The notes under the pieces were generated by a model that was not told where the DNA came from, did not search any database, and was given only the letters and a program-made list of their open reading frames with translations. Position numbers and translations under genes: made by a program. 64,000 bases of DNA, taken from sequence record OR544954. One strand, given 5' to 3'. This document shows, piece by piece, positions 2,813-49,765 of this stretch (its first letter is position 1; each line of letters begins with the position of its first letter). The stretch is from Escherichia phage vB_EcoM_EP32a.

Positions 2813-3276
2813 TGGATGCTATGTTATTTAAAATGTATTTGCTTGAAGCCAAGTCGTTTAAACATATGCCAGTGGAAGATAAGACTCCACTAGAAATAGC
2901 TATTCTCATTAACAAAAGTCTAAATAATCCGCAATATATCGTAGAAGAATTCTGCAAATTGCAGATTCCTAAAGGTTACAAAATTCGTGTAGAGCGAGTT
3001 GGAGCTATTACTCGTTCTAAAAATTCTCCGTTTAGTCTTGAAGAAGGCATAAAGGACTTAGGTTATGAATCTACGGAAAATGCCGTTTATGTGAATCCTG
3101 AAAAGCGTTTAGACTTGTTTGAAAAGCGAGACCATAAGTATTTTGCCAAAAAATACTTTATTACATCATTAGCAGATTTAATCCATTTGCAACGAGCTAT
3201 TTGGAAATTTTTTAAGACAAAAGGTGTAGCGACAGAAACATTCTCTGAACAGCCTAGTTTTTATCTCGGTGAATAA
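2812..3276 (+). CDS. hypothetical protein (154 aa), position of T4 mrh
   Basis: Uninterrupted ORF translationally coupled to neighbours; assignment by synteny only. Confidence 0.5.
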   Translation: MDAMLFKMYLLEAKSFKHMPVEDKTPLEIAILINKSLNNPQYIVEEFCKLQIPKGYKIRVERVGAITRSKNSPFSLEEGIKDLGYESTENAVYVNPEKRLDLFEKRDHKYFAKKYFITSLADLIHLQRAIWKFFKTKGVATETFSEQPSFYLGE

Positions 3277-3457
3277 TATGGACTTGATGAGTATGTTTGA
3301 CGAGCCTGAAGTTGAGGCTCCTAAAGTGCATCGTAGTGAACTTGTTGATGAACTAGATAGTATTATACAACGACACGGCTTTAGTTTACCTGTTGAAGCC
3401 CTGAAAGACCTTGCCTCTTATTATGACGACCCTCCACCATGGAGTCCTTGGAAATGA
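3269..3457 (+). CDS. hypothetical acidic small protein (62 aa)
   Basis: ORF overlapping upstream gene by 8 nt. Confidence 0.4.
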   Translation: MNNMDLMSMFDEPEVEAPKVHRSELVDELDSIIQRHGFSLPVEALKDLASYYDDPPPWSPWK

Positions 3458-11112: not shown

Positions 11113-11517
11113 ATGGCTTTTAATACGGCTTTTAAAGGTTTTAAAGGTTTTGAAGTTGGTAAGAAATATCGTATTATCAAAGGACAGGAAGATAATTTCT
11201 TGAGAATTCTTAATACAACTGGTAAACGTCTTAATACTAATCTGCATACTACTTTATTGTCCAAAGATTTTATTGTGGAAGAGATGATTGGTTATGGTGT
11301 TTCGCATAGTATGCAAGGTGATATTCTAATTTATGGTGCAGAATTTAAATTCTTTGAAGAAGTTCCGGAACCAGATACAGCTGTCGATTTCAAAAAAGGC
11401 TCTATAGAATTTGTTGATGGTTCTGTGATCGTATCAGGCGATGTGGTCATTACAGTTAAAAGTGAACAAGGGCGTTTAGCTGCAATTGATGCACTTCAGA
11501 AAATTAAATTTAAATAA
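11113..11517 (+). CDS. hypothetical protein (134 aa)
   Basis: ORF followed directly by a hairpin terminator. Confidence 0.55.
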   Translation: MAFNTAFKGFKGFEVGKKYRIIKGQEDNFLRILNTTGKRLNTNLHTTLLSKDFIVEEMIGYGVSHSMQGDILIYGAEFKFFEEVPEPDTAVDFKKGSIEFVDGSVIVSGDVVITVKSEQGRLAAIDALQKIKFK

Positions 11518-20145: not shown

Positions 20146-20197
20146 TTTATACGGGCCTATTAAGTTGGGCCTTTAATTTATTTTTGAGGTAATTAAA

Positions 20198-22961: not shown

Positions 22962-23291
22962 ATGAATAAGCTGAATATTATTAACGAACTTCGTAAATGT
23001 GCAGAACCTACTCAGGAAGGATGGGATATTTGGTACCACGGGGCTTATTTAGGGACAATTGTAAAGATTAAAGCAGGCCAATATACGGTTATTCGTGAAA
23101 ATAATGACGCGCCATTTGGCCTTCGTAAAAACTACATGGCAGCGATCAGTTCATTTGTTGATGCAGCTTACGAAATCTATAAAGAAGATTATAAAGAATA
23201 TCAGCAGTCACAACCGGTTATTCGTTCGATTGGTGTAAATAAACAAGCACAAAAATCTATTTGGCAACGTATTAAGGAATGGTTTAAATGA
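22962..23291 (+). CDS. hypothetical protein (109 aa)
   Basis: ORF in motA-asiA variable cluster. Confidence 0.5.
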
Positions 23292-23734
23292 AAACTTTTA
23301 AAGAACGTTTAGCTCTGTTAGATAAAGCTTTATCTCGTGAGACTCCGGAAAGTCTGGCTGCTAAATTAGCTTCTTACGGCGGTGAATATACAGAACAAAA
23401 TGTTTTAGATGAAGTTCCTGAAATCTGTTGGCAGACTCTGTATTGGGATGAAAACCAAAAGTATCAACGACGAATTGTCTGTGCAGCTAATCGTTTTAAA
23501 TTAAAAGATGGACGAACTCTTATTATTCCAGGTGCTCGTCATTACTCTAAAGATATGGCTGAAGTTCCTCAATTAGTTACTCAACAAGTTTGTGATGATG
23601 ACCAAGGGTTTATTGACCAATATAGTAATTATTGGACACGTGAAGAAGCAATGATTATTGCAACGTATGCTGGACAGGTACGTATTGAACGTGGTGGTAA
23701 TGAAAAAGAGCTTTATTCAGAGGACCTTTATTAA
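23288..23734 (+). CDS. hypothetical protein (148 aa)
   Basis: ORF coupled by ATGA overlap. Confidence 0.5.
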
Positions 23735-25739: not shown

Positions 25740-26291
25740 TTACTTAAAGATATTTATAATCGCTTTGATAATAGATTTATTTTCAAGGTCAGGGAATTTA
25801 GGGAATTCGCCGCCAAGATGTTCATGTTTTTCTAAAAGGGCAAAGAATTTTTTGAGCTCTTTAAATTTTCGTTTTTCTTCTCTATTAGCAACCTCTGCGT
25901 CAATAAGAGAACTTAAAACATTGAATAATTTATAGAGTTCATGAATTTTCTTATCACGTTGAACTACGCGTTTATATGCTTCATCTTCCTTCCACCCGTC
26001 ATCGGTCCAAATGTCAAATTCACCAGGTTCTTCTGTAGTAACATTTTGAAGAGCACCTGGAGTGTCAATAACAATTTTTTGCTTATCATAAGTCCATACT
26101 GTTTTTCCTCGATGGTCTTCAACATATACCCATTCTTGCTCGCGTTCGTCAAATATAACAGCATAGCCTTCTTTAGGGTCTAAAGGTTTTTTTGGTGTCG
26201 AATGAGCTGGAAATCCTACGCCTTTTAATGGTTTATAATTTTCTTCTTTGTAAAATTCTTTAGTGTCAAAATAATAGTGATAGAGTTTCAT
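25740..26291 (-). CDS. 38: long tail fiber assembly chaperone/adhesin gp38 (T4-type)
   Basis: 183 aa; MKLYHYYFDTKEFYKEENYKP...FDIWTDDGWKED matches recalled T4 gp38. Confidence 0.9.
   Translation of the reverse strand: MKLYHYYFDTKEFYKEENYKPLKGVGFPAHSTPKKPLDPKEGYAVIFDEREQEWVYVEDHRGKTVWTYDKQKIVIDTPGALQNVTTEEPGEFDIWTDDGWKEDEAYKRVVQRDKKIHELYKLFNVLSSLIDAEVANREEKRKFKELKKFFALLEKHEHLGGEFPKFPDLENKSIIKAIINIFK
25751..25758 (-). promoter_or_regulatory. late promoter TATAAATA for holin t, embedded in 3' end of gene 38
   Basis: TATAAATA on minus strand 21 nt upstream of t ATG. Confidence 0.55.
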
Positions 26292-26321: not shown

Positions 26322-27269
26322 TTATGCTAAACGAACGATATAGTTAAAAGCAACGTTTTTAACTGTGTTTTCTGTATTTCCTGTGGCATTTACAGTTATT
26401 GTGTGTCCATGGGAACCAATTGCAACAGTATGAGAATGAGCACCAATACCTACCGAATGGGTATGAGCGCCAATACCCACAGTATGAGCATGGTTACCCG
26501 TAGCGCTAGTAGTTCCTGACCAACTATGGGTGTGGGCACCGTCTGAAGAAGTTTTGGCCATATTCGACGATGCAGTAGCACCGTTCACGGTTCCAGTGAA
26601 TTTAGCGTCGGCGTTTGCACCTACACTATTATATCCGTCATAGAATATGTTATTGGATATGTCGGCTCGTACCTGAGGACCTGAACGCGCGTGTTGGTGA
26701 GCTCCTGCGGAACTAGTATTACCACTCACTGTATGGTTATGGTTGCCAGTGGTATTACTGGTCTTAGTACCATAATCAAAGCTTGAAGTCGTTTTGCTAC
26801 CGTAATCAAAACTAGACGTGGTCTTAGTACCCAAATCTGTGTTTGATGCACTTGCACTATGGCTATGTGACTTAACACCGTCTGCTTCTGTACTTAATAC
26901 AGCACGCCCAGATGGTTTACCTTTAATCGTTTGCCCACGCATATCAGGCAGAGAGCCGGAAGGATACACCGCAGCTAACTTAGGATACAAGCCAGCATCA
27001 AATGTTTGACCTTCCATTATGGCATAACCTTCAGGAGGTGTATCAGTAGGCCATGGAATCGGAGCACCAATTGGGTAACTCGACACAATATCCGTCTTAA
27101 GGTTATTTATTGTGGTATTCAAGTTAGCAAAGTTGCCAGAACCACCAGTAATATTACCATCAGTACCGAATCATCTTTAGTAAAAAGAGTTCTATCTTTT
27201 AAGTTTATAGCCAATTCACCTTCGGCTAATTTTGCTTCTTTTAAATTGTATCTGTTTTAATGTAGCCAT
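26322..27269 (-). pseudogene. 37: long tail fiber distal subunit gp37 remnant (N-terminal 40 codons plus C-terminal tip; frame-disrupted)
   Basis: ATG at 27269 encodes MATLKQIQFKRSKI then stop; [19 protein letters not shown] in a second frame; C-terminal 266 aa (His-rich GxHxH tip) back in ATG frame after four stops; about 2.1 kb shorter than T4 gene 37. Confidence 0.6.
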
Positions 27270-27277
27270 AAGTCCTC

Positions 27278-27943
27278 TTAATAATAGCCGAAATCTTGAA
27301 CAGAATCTTTAATTACAATCTGGTCGAAACGAGGAACATGATTAGCCTCAGACGCCGGATTCTGTGAGAAAAAGTTTGGTGCAGTTAAGTTACCTGTCAT
27401 GGTATCGCCTTTACGCAATACACGGGAATTTGCGTTATCCGTAACAATATTTATTCGTCCATCAACATAATCTTTTCTTGTGAGATCATTTGCTGCAACC
27501 GGAGCAGTCATATCGCTTCTTACTTGTCCTGAAGCAGATACAACGCCCTTTGTATTAATATCGCCATTACGTGTATTGATTACTACAGTTCTACCCGCTG
27601 TTCCTTGTGATGATTTAAAACCAATACCATACCACGAAACAATATCAATATTTGCTGTAACAAAAGTAGCTGCATCTCCATTACCAGGATAAATACCAGA
27701 TTGATTTGTATTGTTTATAGCATATGGTATTTGCACGCCGTTATTAAATGTTACCTTTGATGCATACGTACCACCATTAGCTTTAGAAACGAAATCGTTA
27801 TCAGCAGCTTGTGGTTTATTATATTCTGAATAGAGTTTAAACGTTTTATACAGGACGTCATCACCTGCTGGCATTAAAGGGAAATTACCTTGGTGCCATA
27901 TAACAGCACCGCCAGTTGTACTACCAGCTTTTAAATCGGCCAT
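27278..27943 (-). CDS. 36: long tail fiber hinge connector gp36
   Basis: 221 aa; near-identical to recalled T4 gp36 (MADLKAGSTTGG...VIKDSVQDFGYY). Confidence 0.9.
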   Translation of the reverse strand: MADLKAGSTTGGAVIWHQGNFPLMPAGDDVLYKTFKLYSEYNKPQAADNDFVSKANGGTYASKVTFNNGVQIPYAINNTNQSGIYPGNGDAATFVTANIDIVSWYGIGFKSSQGTAGRTVVINTRNGDINTKGVVSASGQVRSDMTAPVAANDLTRKDYVDGRINIVTDNANSRVLRKGDTMTGNLTAPNFFSQNPASEANHVPRFDQIVIKDSVQDFGYY

Positions 27944-28005: not shown

Positions 28006-29133
28006 TTATTCTGATGCTTCTTTAAATTCTTGTCCAAATACCTTACCTGTATCAGTTGAAGATTGAGTAGGTAATGTCATTATGTCTGGGGCACTTAAAG
28101 ATTCCGAAACATAATTTACACGAATACCATTTACACCAAACTCAGCAGGTTTTGAAACGCTTCCATTACATGATACTTCAGTGAATATAATGTTTCTTAA
28201 TCCACCTTGCCCGACTGGAGCTGTACGATAACAATAAATCGTGAACCCGTCAGCACCAGCAGGAATTTCTATGTAGTCTTCATATATCTTCCATTCACCT
28301 GCAGCCCCATCAAAGTTTGTATCCTTAAATGAAATAGGTGAAGTAGAAGGAGATTTAAAGAAACGAATAGAAAGTCGTGTCGTCCCTTGTGCTAACAAAT
28401 CGGCGTCAGCCATTAGTTGGAATTTCATATAAAGGAAATCTCCAGGCTTCAATTTATACCCGGCGAGAGGTGTAATAAGGGATGTTGTAGGCATCCTTTT
28501 AATTTCATTATTAGTACCTCCAATGGCAGATAAAAATGTGTCTGTCGATTCATACGTACGACTAGGGAAGCCCGTAGCACCAATATCGTCGATCGTGTCA
28601 TACACAACATCAAGTGGTGTACTATAGTCGGTTGAAGTTTTCTTATTACTATACTTAATATGTTCTAGTGCTATAGCATTCTTACCAGAAATATAAAATG
28701 CTGAATAAGAAAGGTCCACTATATTTAAAACTTGTTGAGCTAATGGAATAGCAGAACTTCCGGCTTTATTAAACCATGTAAGAACTTCGGGTGGAAAGTT
28801 TGTTTTAGCGTTAGTAACAAGAGCAAATATAAAATTTGAAGCATATGTGTCCATGAAAGTAACAAATGCACTTGACGTGGCGTCGTTTTCAGTAGAGAAA
28901 TTATATGACTTAGATTCAACTACTGCACCTGTTGTAGGATTTATTACACGAACGTTTAATCCAACGGAAAAAACCTGGGACCCGAGTGGATTATCCTGGA
29001 ACTTAATATAAGCAGGAGATGTTGATAGCGGACAAGAGCCCGCTATGCTTAATTTAAATCGTACTGAATTGCTTTCCGATAAAAACGGCGTTTGGACGTA
29101 TCCTTGTCCAAACTTAGCCATAAATTTTTCCAT
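28006..29133 (-). CDS. 35: long tail fiber proximal connector gp35
   Basis: 375 aa; size and synteny between gp34 and gp36. Confidence 0.8.
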   Translation of the reverse strand: MEKFMAKFGQGYVQTPFLSESNSVRFKLSIAGSCPLSTSPAYIKFQDNPLGSQVFSVGLNVRVINPTTGAVVESKSYNFSTENDATSSAFVTFMDTYASNFIFALVTNAKTNFPPEVLTWFNKAGSSAIPLAQQVLNIVDLSYSAFYISGKNAIALEHIKYSNKKTSTDYSTPLDVVYDTIDDIGATGFPSRTYESTDTFLSAIGGTNNEIKRMPTTSLITPLAGYKLKPGDFLYMKFQLMADADLLAQGTTRLSIRFFKSPSTSPISFKDTNFDGAAGEWKIYEDYIEIPAGADGFTIYCYRTAPVGQGGLRNIIFTEVSCNGSVSKPAEFGVNGIRVNYVSESLSAPDIMTLPTQSSTDTGKVFGQEFKEASE

Positions 29134-29141
29134 AATACCTC

Positions 29142-32100
29142 TTATTCAATCCACTCGAATTTAACAGATTTATTCACAGGGTCTGGAATAATGCGGACGT
29201 TACCAATCCTTAAGAAATCCCTTATCGTCAAGTTTCCGATTGTTGCATTATCAGAAGGTAAAGCACCAATATCAGAAGGTTGAGGAGGGTTTCCACCATC
29301 AAATACTTGAACAAAACTTGACCAAGAATTTTTAGTTTTCTGCCATGTACGAGTCCAGCGAGTGGTACGCGCTTCCGGTGTCGTTGGATAAGTAATCCAA
29401 TCTTGGTAAAGTGAATCAAGTGTGTTACCAAACTGAGTCAATGTACCAGGAGATTTAACTTCTTCACCACGTTCTAAATATGGAAGCCCAGTCACTTCAT
29501 TAGTTTTTTCAACCATTTTAAAATAACCTGGGAACTGGTTATAAGTGGCTGAATCGTTAATATCGATTGACCAGAATCCGACTGTATCAGATGTTGGTGC
29601 ACGGGTATATAAATCAGACGTTTTAGTACCCTGAGAACGAATTCTCGAGTTAACAGTCAAACCATCTGAATTTATAGTAGCACCTTTGGCAATGATTAAG
29701 CCTTCACCAATTGTAATCTGACCGGATTGGTTATTAATTGATAATGGACGTAATCCATTAAATCCACCAGTCTGATCACCTGATGCAGTAAGCATAAAAT
29801 ATGTGCTGCCTCCATCATTGCGAATAAAGAATCCGTAATCACCACTAATTGCTCTGAAAGCATTTGCAGACTTGCTAATGAATTCACCATTGGCTGTAAC
29901 TGAACGACCAAATGTTGCAACACCATTCGCATTTAACGTGCCTGAAGCGTTAACATTTATTGGCATCACAGTACCATTAATGCTAAACGCTATATTCCCA
30001 TCTTTATTACGTTGAGAATAAAAATGATTAGACGTTTCATCACCAACTTCAAATACAGTAGAACGTGTTGTATCTGATCCGCCACCAAACTGATTTCCCC
30101 AAACTCTGATAGTCATCGTCTGTGCTGGGTTAGTTCCAGTCTGAGGTCCTTTTTCAAAAATCAGTCGAGTAGCTGTTCCCGTATTAGAAATAGTTAATGT
30201 ACTATTTGCCGAAACTGAACCACCAAACGTAGCAGTACTAGATGATACAAGAGGGGCACTCAGATTCGTTTGTTGAGTTAATGTTAGTGAACCATTAACC
30301 GTCTGTGCAATGTCCCTACGAATGAACTGAGATGAATCTAGGCCATCTAATAAATTACTATCTACGGCTTTAGCTTTCAATGGCAAATAGTTAGCTAGTA
30401 CACGGTTTAATTCATATGGGGATATAGCATAGCTATTTTTCTCATATGATTCTAAAGGTTGTGTTGAACCAACTGTATCATTACCAACAAATGTAATAGA
30501 ACCGGATGAAGTTTTAACGAATCCACGAATCGCCGTAGTAGCAGCCCATGTCGGTTCGTTCTGGACAATCCATTTTAAATTCTTAGGAGATACAGCAGTA
30601 TTAGCAGAAGTTCCTATTACAGTTTCAGCCCGAGTAGCAACCTTAATTACGCCTTCAGACGTTTCAGTGGACTTAGTCCCTAAAAGCTTTTTAGGAGTAA
30701 TAAGAACATCATCTAAAGTTCCTGCATTAGATTCTGCCTGGGTCGCTACGCGAAGTGTACCACGCTGTGTTTCATTTGCTTTAGAAATATCAAGAGTATA
30801 ATGGTTCCACAAGGTTCCTTCTTCAATAAGTCCGGAATCAGAATTAACACTGGTACGGTCAGAAGAATCAAAATGAGTTTTAATTTTCAGTGGAGTCGAG
30901 ATACGAGTATCATCAGTTCCAGTATCAAATTCAACTTGCGTAGCAAGTTCGGCTATGCCGGATAATCCTTCCGTAGCTTTCCTATCATTTAACGTCTTAG
31001 GCGTTACTGCACGTGTATAATCAGTCCCAGCATTAGTTTCTGTTTGCGTAGCAATTTCAATTAAACCAATACGTCCATCGGTAGAAGTTTTCTTATGTAG
31101 TGTTTCAGGAGTTACTACAGCGTGAGAATAACCTGCTTGAGATTGTCCAGCAATTACTTCACTATCAACAGCTAAAATTACTGCACCTTGTTGAGCATAA
31201 GTTGCTTTATATTGGTCAAGGGCTTTAGGAGAAATAGTTAAATTATTTACGGTTTTATTATAAACGTTAGTGCCTGCGGCCCCACGAGTTTCAGCAGGAG
31301 TAGCAGAAGTAGTTGATACATATTTAACTATACCAGATAGTGTTTCAGAACCCTGACGTGCCTGCAATTTCTTAGGTGTAATAATCGTTGTGTCATCAAG
31401 ACCAGCATCAGTTTCAGCCTGAGTAGCAATTTCAGCAAGACCACGACGAGTTTCAGTTGCTGTACGCTCATTTAGTTTTTTAGGCGTAACAATAGTATCG
31501 TCCACAAATGTTGCTGTGGAATTCTGGTTAACTTGCGCTGTTGTAGCAATTTTGGCGATACCACGTCGAGATTCAGTTGCTGTACGATTTGCCAACGTTT
31601 CAGGAGTAATAGCAACTTCTTTAGCTGGAGTATTCTCTAAATCAACATTTGCTTGCGCTTGAGTAGCAAGAGCAATAACACCTACACGAGCTCGTGTAGC
31701 ATCAGTTCCAGCATCAACACGTTCTACCGTAGGGACATTCTGTTGCACAACCCAATAACGTGTACCAGCAACGGTGTCTTCGATATACGCTAATTCTAAT
31801 ACAGGAACATATGAAGTAGTGCCATTGAATTCTAGTTCAGTAACAGAGACCCATTGAGCATCAGGTGGATATTCAGAACGTTTAGGGAACTGAAGCAATG
31901 CAACAGAAGAAGCAATTGTATCACCTTCGGCAGCTTTAATTTTTACTGTTTGGCCTTTACGCATGTAGTTCATTGAAATTTTAACAGTGTCACCACTCAA
32001 AATTCCGGAAGGCAGCGTAAGATTAATAGTTCCGGCTGTAGCGTTATTTGTGCCAAAAATAAGAACTTCTTCATTTGGACGAATATTTGAATCCGCACGG

Positions 32101-33017
32101 ATAATACGAAGACGCGATTTCTGGTCGCCTTCCCATATACGCCATAAACTATTTGAAGCATCAAAAACAAAAAACGCGTCAGAGTCATTTCTGCCTTCGG
32201 CAATATGAGTCCCGACTTCACCAATAGACGTTGTATCATCAAATGTTTTAACAATTGTATGATACAGTGGGTTTAATTTATCTAAATCGACTAGGGTGAT
32301 TATATCGCCATTGTTAGCATTACGTGGAAGTGTAATGTTGATTGGTGCTGCACTAGTAAAACGACGAACGATAAAATCATTTGCTTGTGCTTGATATGGT
32401 GTCGCAGGTGTAACAGTGATTGATTCTTTACCATAATCAGTAATATACATCTGCCACAAACGATTACTAAACACAAACAATAGTTGTGAACGTGGACGCG
32501 TCATTAAAACTGTACGAACTTGTTCACCTCTAAAGTTTAAAATACTTTGCACAGACGCGTTAATCTGTACTTTAACTGTCCCGGTTCTTCCACCAATATC
32601 AGCCAAAACAACAGTATCACCATCAACCGGCGTATTTGGCAATGTGAAAACCATATCATTGCCGGCACCAGTGTTAACCGAAATCGATTCGCCTGAAGAA
32701 AGTTGATAAGTCCCAGAAGCGACAGTTATCCATTGTGCATCAGTACGAACTGCACGCCATTGTAAAAGGTTAAATGCCCCGGAAGGAGACACGATATCAT
32801 TTATTGCTTGATATAAACGGTTGTCATAAAGAACAACAAATCCTTTGTTATATCCACGCGTAGAATCATATACTTGAACGGTGTTTTCTTGTACCAGGAA
32901 GTCAACGTTTACGCCATCAGTACCTACTGTACGGTCGGCTAATGCTACGTTAACAATCTTGTCGCCACCGGCGTCCAGACCGTCTTCGGCTCTGAACTTA
33001 CGTTTGATGTCGGCCAT
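29142..33017 (-). CDS. 34: long tail fiber proximal subunit gp34
   Basis: 1291 aa; N- and C-termini match recalled T4 gp34; internal repeated xTATETRRG segments. Confidence 0.9.
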   Translation of the reverse strand: MADIKRKFRAEDGLDAGGDKIVNVALADRTVGTDGVNVDFLVQENTVQVYDSTRGYNKGFVVLYDNRLYQAINDIVSPSGAFNLLQWRAVRTDAQWITVASGTYQLSSGESISVNTGAGNDMVFTLPNTPVDGDTVVLADIGGRTGTVKVQINASVQSILNFRGEQVRTVLMTRPRSQLLFVFSNRLWQMYITDYGKESITVTPATPYQAQANDFIVRRFTSAAPINITLPRNANNGDIITLVDLDKLNPLYHTIVKTFDDTTSIGEVGTHIAEGRNDSDAFFVFDASNSLWRIWEGDQKSRLRIIRADSNIRPNEEVLIFGTNNATAGTINLTLPSGILSGDTVKISMNYMRKGQTVKIKAAEGDTIASSVALLQFPKRSEYPPDAQWVSVTELEFNGTTSYVPVLELAYIEDTVAGTRYWVVQQNVPTVERVDAGTDATRARVGVIALATQAQANVDLENTPAKEVAITPETLANRTATESRRGIAKIATTAQVNQNSTATFVDDTIVTPKKLNERTATETRRGLAEIATQAETDAGLDDTTIITPKKLQARQGSETLSGIVKYVSTTSATPAETRGAAGTNVYNKTVNNLTISPKALDQYKATYAQQGAVILAVDSEVIAGQSQAGYSHAVVTPETLHKKTSTDGRIGLIEIATQTETNAGTDYTRAVTPKTLNDRKATEGLSGIAELATQVEFDTGTDDTRISTPLKIKTHFDSSDRTSVNSDSGLIEEGTLWNHYTLDISKANETQRGTLRVATQAESNAGTLDDVLITPKKLLGTKSTETSEGVIKVATRAETVIGTSANTAVSPKNLKWIVQNEPTWAATTAIRGFVKTSSGSITFVGNDTVGSTQPLESYEKNSYAISPYELNRVLANYLPLKAKAVDSNLLDGLDSSQFIRRDIAQTVNGSLTLTQQTNLSAPLVSSSTATFGGSVSANSTLTISNTGTATRLIFEKGPQTGTNPAQTMTIRVWGNQFGGGSDTTRSTVFEVGDETSNHFYSQRNKDGNIAFSINGTVMPINVNASGTLNANGVATFGRSVTANGEFISKSANAFRAISGDYGFFIRNDGGSTYFMLTASGDQTGGFNGLRPLSINNQSGQITIGEGLIIAKGATINSDGLTVNSRIRSQGTKTSDLYTRAPTSDTVGFWSIDINDSATYNQFPGYFKMVEKTNEVTGLPYLERGEEVKSPGTLTQFGNTLDSLYQDWITYPTTPEARTTRWTRTWQKTKNSWSSFVQVFDGGNPPQPSDIGALPSDNATIGNLTIRDFLRIGNVRIIPDPVNKSVKFEWIE

Positions 33018-48205: not shown

Positions 48206-49198
48206 ATGTTACCTGTCATCAGAAAACTTATTTCTCCAAAAGAACTGGCTGAGATTATTCCTTTGTCGGAAGCTTACGCATCACAAGTGGCTTCTCATCG
48301 CGAACAAGTTAATTCGATTATGAACGGTGAAGACTCACGCAAACTTATTGTTGTAGGTCCTTGTTCAATTCATGACCCTATTGCTGCTGTTGAATACGGC
48401 AAACGTCTGGCTGAACTTCAAACTCGTCTTCCTAATGTTCTGTTAGTGATGCGCGTTTATTTTGAAAAGCCTCGAACTACCGTAGGTTGGAAAGGTCTTG
48501 TAAATGATCCATATCTTGACGGAAGTTTTGATATGAACCACGGTCTTATAGTTGCACGAACATTGTGTCGTAAACTTCTACGTATGGGACTTCCATTAGC
48601 AACTGAAGTATTAGACCCATTCACGATTAAGTATCTTTCTGGTATTTTCTCATGGGTTGCTATTGGCGCCCGTACGACTGAAAGTCAGACACATCGTGAA
48701 ATTGCTTCAGGTCTACCGATGTGCGTAGGCTTCAAGAACGCAACCAATGGTTCTATTAAAGTAGCTACAGACGCGATGTATAGTGCCGCCTGGCCTCATC
48801 GGTATATGGGTATGGACGTCGATGGTACTGTAGGCATTGTTGAAGCTGAAGGTAATCAGAATACGCATATCGTATTGCGTGGCGGGACCAACGGCCCGAA
48901 CTATCATTCTTCTGATATTCAAGAAGCTTCTAACAAAGCAAGGGCAGTAGGTCTGAATCATTATGTAATGGTTGACTGTAGCCATGCAAACGCTGATGGG
49001 CATTATAGCAATCAAATCGGTATTGGTAAAAATTTAGCAGCTAATGATTTGGTCAAAGGAATTATGATAGAATCGTTCCTACATGAAGGAAATCAAAAAA
49101 TTTCTGATAATATGTCCTATGGCGTTTCCGTTACCGATGCGTGCATCAGTTGGGAACAAACTAAAGAGCTGTTAACTTATATTAATAAGGTTCAATAA
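48206..49198 (+). CDS. 3-deoxy-D-arabino-heptulosonate-7-phosphate (DAHP) synthase, class I (AroG/AroF/AroH-like)
   Basis: 330 aa; motifs LIVVGPCSIHDP, MRVYFEKPRTTVGWKGL, IGARTTESQTHRE, VGFKNATNGS, ILRGG, DCSHANA, ESFLHEGNQ, VTDACISWE align with recalled E. coli AroG incl. metal ligands Cys/His/Glu/Asp; SD TAAGGA. Confidence 0.85.
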   Translation: MLPVIRKLISPKELAEIIPLSEAYASQVASHREQVNSIMNGEDSRKLIVVGPCSIHDPIAAVEYGKRLAELQTRLPNVLLVMRVYFEKPRTTVGWKGLVNDPYLDGSFDMNHGLIVARTLCRKLLRMGLPLATEVLDPFTIKYLSGIFSWVAIGARTTESQTHREIASGLPMCVGFKNATNGSIKVATDAMYSAAWPHRYMGMDVDGTVGIVEAEGNQNTHIVLRGGTNGPNYHSSDIQEASNKARAVGLNHYVMVDCSHANADGHYSNQIGIGKNLAANDLVKGIMIESFLHEGNQKISDNMSYGVSVTDACISWEQTKELLTYINKVQ

Positions 49199-49765
49199 TG
49201 AAAGCTAGCACATACCTTCAGATTGCATATCTGATTTCTCAAGAATCAAAATGTTGTTCATGGAAAGTTGGCGCAGTCATTGAAAAAGATGGGCGCATTA
49301 TTTCTACTGGGTATAACGGCTCTCAACTGTTGCGAACATGCATCTGAAAATGGTTGGTTGAAGAATAAACCAATCCCAGTCATCGTTGCTGGGCATAAAG
49401 AAGGCACTACAGCATTTGGACGGGCCGATAATTTTGTTTTGGCTAAAGAACATCGGGCTGCTCATAGTGCATGGTCTGCCAATAACGAAATCCATGCGGA
49501 ACTGAATGCAATTTTGTTTGCAGCTCGTAAAGGTAATTCTATTGAAGGTGCTACGTTGTATACGACACTTTCTCCATGTCCTGATTGCACTAAAGCTATT
49601 ACACAGTCAGGTATTAAAAAGGTTGTATACGCAGAATTATATGACAGATCTCCTGAAAATTGGGCAGACATTCTAAAACAAGCCGGTATTGAAGTAATTC
49701 AGTACTCTCGTAATAATCTTCGTTCTCTGAATTGGGAACAAATCCGAAACTTTTGTGGTGAATAA
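49198..49765 (+). pseudogene. cd: dCMP deaminase (cd) interrupted by a frameshift
   Basis: ATG 49198 gives MKASTYLQIAYLISQESKCCSWKVGAVIEKDGRIISTGYNGS then stop at 49345; deaminase core (NCCEHA...HAELNAIL...SPCPDC) continues in +1 frame 49268-49765; about 14 nt missing relative to recalled T4 cd. Confidence 0.6.

Follow-up and report, generated by a model that had tools for sequence, protein, structure and literature searches.

The gene 37 locus of EP32a

The window analysed here is a stretch of 64,000 nucleotides from the genome record of Escherichia phage vB_EcoM_EP32a (OR544954; hereafter EP32a). EP32a is a Mosigvirus, an RB69-like member of the Tevenvirinae, and its window is collinear with, and 97.9% identical to, the corresponding region of APCEc01 (KR422352). 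An earlier sequence-only reading of the locus had compared it with T4; the phage is not T4, and its nearest relative is APCEc01. Four EP32a proteins (WPK28650.1, WPK28657.1, WPK28660.1 and WPK28661.1) match the window exactly, and all four belong to a single contig of 163,906 bp. The first base of the window aligns with the first base of APCEc01, at the start codon of the primase, and this shared start base implies that the EP32a genome was either oriented to APCEc01 or built against it. The long tail fibre genes and what remains of gene 37 are laid out as follows:

25740 to 26291, minus strand: gene 38, a T4-type fibre assembly chaperone of 183 aa, intact and identical to WPK28657.1 of EP32a
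26322 to 27167, minus strand: 3' part of gene 37, 846 nt, intact, with the collar and the His-rich needle tip and no internal stop
27168 to 27171, minus strand: junction J2, where 2,074 nt of APCEc01 have no counterpart; microhomology of 4 nt, ATTC (gene sense)
27172 to 27228, minus strand: body of an out-of-frame island, giving stop codons when read in the ATG frame
27229 to 27230, minus strand: junction J1, at which 29 nt are absent (APCEc01 sequence CCGCAGGTGCACGTCCTGCTGCTTCAGTA, gene sense) and the frame is shifted
27231 to 27269, minus strand: 5' end of gene 37, the ATG with the 13 first conserved codons, MATLKQIQFKRSK
27278 to 27943, minus strand: gene 36, 221 aa, intact and identical to WPK28660.1 of EP32a
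28006 to 33017, minus strand: genes 35 and 34, 375 aa and 1,291 aa, intact, with lengths equal to those of APCEc01, gp35 being identical to WPK28661.1 of EP32a

The remnant of gene 37 between the intact genes 36 and 38 measures 948 nt (26322 to 27269, minus strand). Gene 37 in relatives spans 3,051 to 3,294 nt (3,051 in APCEc01 and 3,117 to 3,294 in six others), and a single continuous gene 37 reading frame of about 1,000 to 1,100 codons is absent from EP32a. Translation from the ATG at 27269 gives MATLKQIQFKRSKISRR followed by a stop; three more stops succeed it, after which the frame is open to ...NYIVRLA and the terminal stop. Residue 14 of this product ("I") is created by the junction, the relatives having T or V at this position. 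The silent variants in the 5' end of the gene (ACA, CAG) are of the type found in phiD1 and in EP32b (OR544955), the sibling phage from the same study, and are unlike the APCEc01 type.

Against all seven full-length relatives the gap at J1 is exactly 29 nt, with 1 nt of microhomology or ambiguity, and it corresponds exactly to a 30-nt patch that separates two allele families of gene 37. The aligned island block that follows (27168 to 27230) is identical to APCEc01 at 63 of 63 positions, and its conserved protein segment is encoded in another frame, within an ORF at 27119 to 27214. The two N-terminal pieces that join gp36, MATLKQIQFKRSK and AEGELAINLKDRT, are both present as DNA, in frames set apart by the 29-nt gap. 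Relative to APCEc01, the gap at J2 takes the whole rod domain (~690 residues). The two gaps together amount to 2,103 nt, or 701 codons, which brings the tip back into the ATG frame and leaves the island outside it. When EP32a is set against APCEc01 gene 37 (AKO61353.1), which occupies the same position between genes 36 and 38, 39 nt at the 5' end, the island of 63 nt and 846 nt at the 3' end (~97%) are collinear, whereas nt 41 to 69 and ~132 to 2205 are missing and no continuous frame is left.

Among the codons of the 846-nt 3' part that differ from APCEc01, 22 are synonymous and 8 non-synonymous. The 266-aa ORF that begins at the TTG at 27122 matches the Pfam Collar domain (PF07484, E=2e-11), and its alignment with the T4 gp37 structure 2XGF runs over the whole length (E=1e-80). 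Everything that the sequence-only reading stated about the sequence itself holds: it had described a remnant of about 950 nt between intact gp36 and gp38, an ATG frame that ends at an early stop, about 29 nt missing ahead of a conserved segment in a different frame, a tip that returns to the ATG frame after four in-frame stops, and a C-terminal 266 aa that constitutes the gp37 tip. Its proposal of tip synthesis starting at the internal TTG fares less well. We found no Shine-Dalgarno sequence upstream of the TTG at 27122, and a product begun there would lack the N-terminus that binds gp36, leaving the proposal unsupported.

The changes that distinguish genes 34, 35, 36 and 38 from their APCEc01 counterparts are mainly synonymous. 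Decay of these partner genes would be expected of a fibreless phage carrying a gene 37 pseudogene and was not seen, all four being intact. Four intact partner genes together with an intact tip would be unexpected in a lineage that had dispensed with its fibre.

Deletions unique to the record fall on patches of divergence from EP32b

Comparison of the whole window with APCEc01, FP43, HX01 and JK36 as references identified five deletions that are unique to the EP32a record (2,074, 29, 42, 15 and 14 nt). Two of these are the gaps in gene 37, and the others lie elsewhere in the window:

11304 to 11305, plus strand: 42-nt deletion, in frame, in the ORF at 11113 to 11517
23566 to 23567, plus strand: 15-nt deletion, in frame, in an arn-like ORF at 23288 to 23734 (annotated as an anti-restriction nuclease and identical to WPK28650.1)
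49324 to 49325, plus strand: 14-nt deletion that frameshifts cd (dCMP deaminase, 49198 to 49765)

The frameshift splits cd into ORFs at 49198 to 49347 and 49268 to 49765. In database searches, the 14 nt missing from cd were kept in 149 of 149 full-length relatives, the 15 nt missing from the arn-like ORF in 655 of 655 relatives covering the site, and the 42 nt missing at 11304/11305 in 156 of 156 relatives covering that site. APCEc01 has 63 ORFs that reach 100 aa or more; only two of them are disrupted in the window, namely gene 37 and cd, and the whole-window comparison with APCEc01 revealed no frameshift of 1 to 2 nt in coding sequence. Microhomologies at the junctions of the five deletions are 0, 0, 0, 1 and 4 nt, which is as expected for arbitrary abutment and atypical of slippage; given values this small, we rejected replication slippage and microhomology-mediated deletion as their source. 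The EP32a junction sequences had no match in IMG/VR or in JGI metagenomes. A contig index yielded no exact protein match to gp38 or to the 266-aa ORF, and the EP32a proteins that match the window exactly occur under NCBI sources alone, with no Logan or ENA assembly. The only phage record that spans more than 80% of the gene 37 locus is EP32b (OR544955), and none is collinear across it.

Two other indels were first taken as lesions as well: an allele ~12 to 15 nt shorter at position 2527, and a repeat-like insertion of 21 nt at 11118 to 11138, near the start of the ORF at 11113 to 11517. Both are common to other Mosigviruses, and we therefore classed them as natural polymorphisms.

The EP32b record, a "complete genome" of 156,698 bp, is similarly damaged. 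When compared with three relatives, its homologous 64 kb contains ~25 abrupt deletions of 14 to 389 nt, and its annotation splits the genes for gp32, thymidylate synthase (td), nrdB, DNA ligase, endonuclease IV (denB), gene 34 and gene 37. Split genes of this kind are impossible for a phage that forms plaques, so the pipeline itself generates such lesions. The EP32b gene 37, annotated as five CDS, is of the O157-typing-phage-3 allele and has five deletions within it; its islands of 148 nt and 85 nt are 100% identical to O157-typing-phage-3. It shares study, host and pipeline with that of EP32a and likewise has abrupt internal deletions, one with a junction at the J2 site. It differs in carrying the O157-typing-phage type of allele and in the number of lesions in the homologous region (~25, against five in EP32a). 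EP32b is named as a podovirus (vB_EcoP) despite its T4-like myovirus genome.

Divergent patches are taken here as those in which EP32b and APCEc01-type sequence mismatch at 6 or more of 15 nt. Outside gene 37, divergent patches account for only 0.45% of positions, and all four of the small deletions (42, 15, 14 and 29 nt) fall exactly on such patches. EP32b and APCEc01-type sequences mismatch at 19/42, 6/15, 6/14 and 12/29 positions within the segments deleted, respectively, and at 2 to 8 positions per 30 nt in the flanks. The location of the deletions outside gene 37 in divergent patches, 3 out of 3, is far beyond chance. The arn-like deletion sits on a patch that separates EP32b/HX01-type from APCEc01-type alleles. 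Next to the gene 37, arn-like and 42-nt deletions the window carries EP32b variants on one side; around the cd deletion it does so on both. J2 ends downstream where the conserved C-terminal block begins, a boundary at which conservation among relatives climbs from 0.44 to 0.78-0.97, and this end lies within a few bases of a junction in EP32b's own gene 37. Overall, ~10% of the divergent patches are deleted in the window, which has the APCEc01-type allele at the others.

The distribution of identity along the window points the same way. In gap-free intervals of 40 nt, identity between EP32a and APCEc01 never drops below 80%, whereas natural pairs, including APCEc01 and JK36 (98.1% identical overall), contain replaced patches with identity as low as 35%. 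This pattern in the aligned sequences suggests that, where more divergent sequence might have stood, nothing is left in the EP32a window.

Between 17000 and 22500, identity is 99-100% to EP32b and only 96-98.7% to APCEc01, and a run matching EP32b exactly in this 17-22 kb segment of the window extends for 1,524 nt from position 20153. Such a segment may derive from reads or contigs shared between the two phages, or may reflect a recent natural exchange.

Origin of the deletions

E. coli O157:H7 strain J32 was the isolation host of EP32a as well as EP32b, and both were purified through three rounds of plaque isolation (PMC11657129). EP32a is an environmental isolate from wastewater, with no engineering described; its particle has a contractile tail, with no fibres mentioned, and it forms clear plaques, the EOP ranging over 0.5-1.0 among seven strains of E. 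coli O157 (PMC11657129). Sequencing used 100 Mb of 2x150 reads per sample with de novo assembly in SPAdes 3.13, and APCEc01, at 98.08% identity, is termed the "reference phage" (PMC11657129). A T4-type phage without the distal half-fibre should not plaque as EP32a does.

The most likely explanation, and one in which we place considerable confidence, is that divergent segments were lost during assembly or finishing of mixed EP32a and EP32b reads. We favour it because the record-unique deletions lie at sites where the sibling diverges, the EP32b record is similarly damaged and EP32a is a published plaque former. The sequence-only reading had offered two possibilities, and of these the mis-assembled gene 37 is the one we retain, in this more specific form; the internal-deletion pseudogene is unsupported. 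In the process we envisage, reads or contigs of two co-isolated Mosigviruses of ~97% identity, the APCEc01-like EP32a and the O157-typing-phage-like EP32b, would have been resolved together, the mixing having come about through an incompletely separated lysate or through cross-talk between the two libraries. Assembly would have run through the near-identical stretches, while short, sharply divergent patches, and likewise the gene 37 rod, hypervariable over 2 kb, would have been dropped and their conserved flanks abutted. Gene 37 would have lost 29 nt and ~2.07 kb in this way, and three other sites 42, 15 and 14 nt. These losses might have occurred as bubbles or branches of the de Bruijn graph were handled, as contigs were joined against the "reference phage", or at consensus calling. 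In the real EP32a, gene 37 is almost certainly continuous and ~3.1-3.3 kb long, and the stub in the deposited sequence is very probably no biological feature.

Some observations sit uneasily with an artefact. Plain de novo SPAdes normally deletes no 14-42 nt at repeat-free sites, and only ~10% of the divergent patches are deleted. Under a simple bubble model, flanking SNPs closer than k to a patch should have vanished into the gap, yet they are present. That the two gaps in gene 37 sum to a multiple of three would happen by chance in 1/3 of cases and is also expected of a deletion that was once in frame.

More specific technical causes were considered and set aside. A pure reference-guided consensus on APCEc01 would fit the shared start coordinate, the collinearity with APCEc01 and the 100%-identical island, but we rejected it as the sole mechanism, since the paper states de novo SPAdes and the window has a 21-nt insertion relative to APCEc01. 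Dropout of GC-rich sequence was discarded as well, for GC content is 66% in the 29-nt segment but only 20-30% in the arn-like 15-nt segment. As to a common restriction or adaptor motif, CTTCAG and CAGGTG occur in the 29- and 14-nt segments, at a frequency near chance and on different strands, and neither is found in the 15- or 42-nt deleted segments.

We think it unlikely that genuine deletions were formed in vivo, in a mixed infection of the EP32a/EP32b type in which defective recombinants dominate and are complemented by co-infecting phage with intact fibres. They would then have passed through recombination heteroduplexes, with non-homologous patches excised, for example after loop cleavage by endonuclease VII. 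The positions of the deletions, exactly on patches that diverge between the two phages and with allele type switching at one flank, speak for this route, and the 5-kb segment of the window that is 99-100% identical to EP32b fits exchange; T4-type gene 37 mutants can, moreover, be complemented in trans. Heteroduplex repair, however, normally converts to one allele and does not delete both, and EP32b would need ~25 such events, gp32 and ligase included. We know of no selection for genomes null for gene 37. Three single-plaque purifications and the high EOP further argue against a helper-dependent consensus (PMC11657129). It is very unlikely that gene 37 is truly inactive and that infection proceeds without distal long tail fibres, relying on a permissive baseplate together with the short tail fibres, or on an adhesin encoded outside the window. 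The deposited consensus has no translatable gene 37 and yet the phage plaques, and T4 baseplate (gene 9) mutants that are infective without fibres were reportedly described by Crowther in 1980; gene 9 of EP32a lies outside the window. Fibre-independent infection is hard to reconcile with the intact and conserved genes 34, 35 and 36 and the gene 37-specific chaperone gene 38, with an 846-nt tip-coding stretch free of stops, or with similar lesions in unrelated genes. Nor does the window offer an alternative fibre, which had been suggested earlier: a second fibre gene was sought in the 64 kb and none was found, the window being collinear with APCEc01 with no insertion longer than 21 nt. That EP32a stocks are dominated by a genome null for gene 37, whether fibre-independent or cheating on fibres supplied by EP32b, strikes us as quite improbable; were it so, the precise fit of the deletions to the patches would be the trace left when heteroduplexes between two co-infecting T-even phages were processed in an error-prone way.

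Deliberate intervention and a working short fibre have still less to recommend them. A laboratory deletion of gene 37, made for instance for fibre swapping or trans-complementation, might well take out the rod domain and keep both ends of the gene, as seen here. No scar, marker or restriction site is present at the junctions, gene 37 is left out of frame, three more unique deletions affect unrelated genes, and the phage is reported as a wastewater isolate with no engineering (PMC11657129). Nothing supports this option, which had also been raised in the sequence-only reading, and we regard it as having next to no chance of being correct. We find it scarcely credible that the stub yields a shortened functional fibre, through a restart at the TTG at 27122 or through recoding across the island. 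The ATG and tip frames do coincide, with 2,103 nt or 701 codons lost, but four in-frame stops intervene, the TTG has no Shine-Dalgarno sequence before it, and a 266-aa product would have neither the gp36-joining N-terminus nor a rod.

Comparison with T4 fibres and use of the two records

In work by Hyman and Goldberg, T4 gene 37 was reportedly engineered to lose internal sequence in frame, and the shortened fibres assemble. In those constructs the rod is lost and the termini are kept, as in EP32a, but the EP32a stub is out of frame and carries four stops.

If the deletions arose in assembly or finishing, as we propose, OR544954 and OR544955, both labelled as complete genomes of candidate biocontrol phages, misrepresent the receptor-binding fibre gene along with other genes. 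Host-range prediction, catalogues of receptor-binding proteins, pangenome and pseudogene counts, and safety assessment would all be misled by the two records. The signature described here, record-unique and microhomology-free deletions that lie exactly on patches of divergence from a co-isolated sibling, provides a reusable test for artefacts of this type. Real deletions would instead bear on fibre-independent infection or cheater dynamics in T-even phages; the evidence points against them.

Like the T4 gp37 tip (2XGF, residues 785-1026), the 266-aa EP32a ORF has a collar domain and His-X-His needle motifs. It differs in being detached from N-terminal and rod sequence, and in its central loop, the latter difference being within the normal variability of tips. 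Among the other fibre proteins, the hinge connector gp35 (28006 to 29133) has a match to the Pfam ILEI/PANDER family (PF15711, E=8e-7) over residues 58-129.
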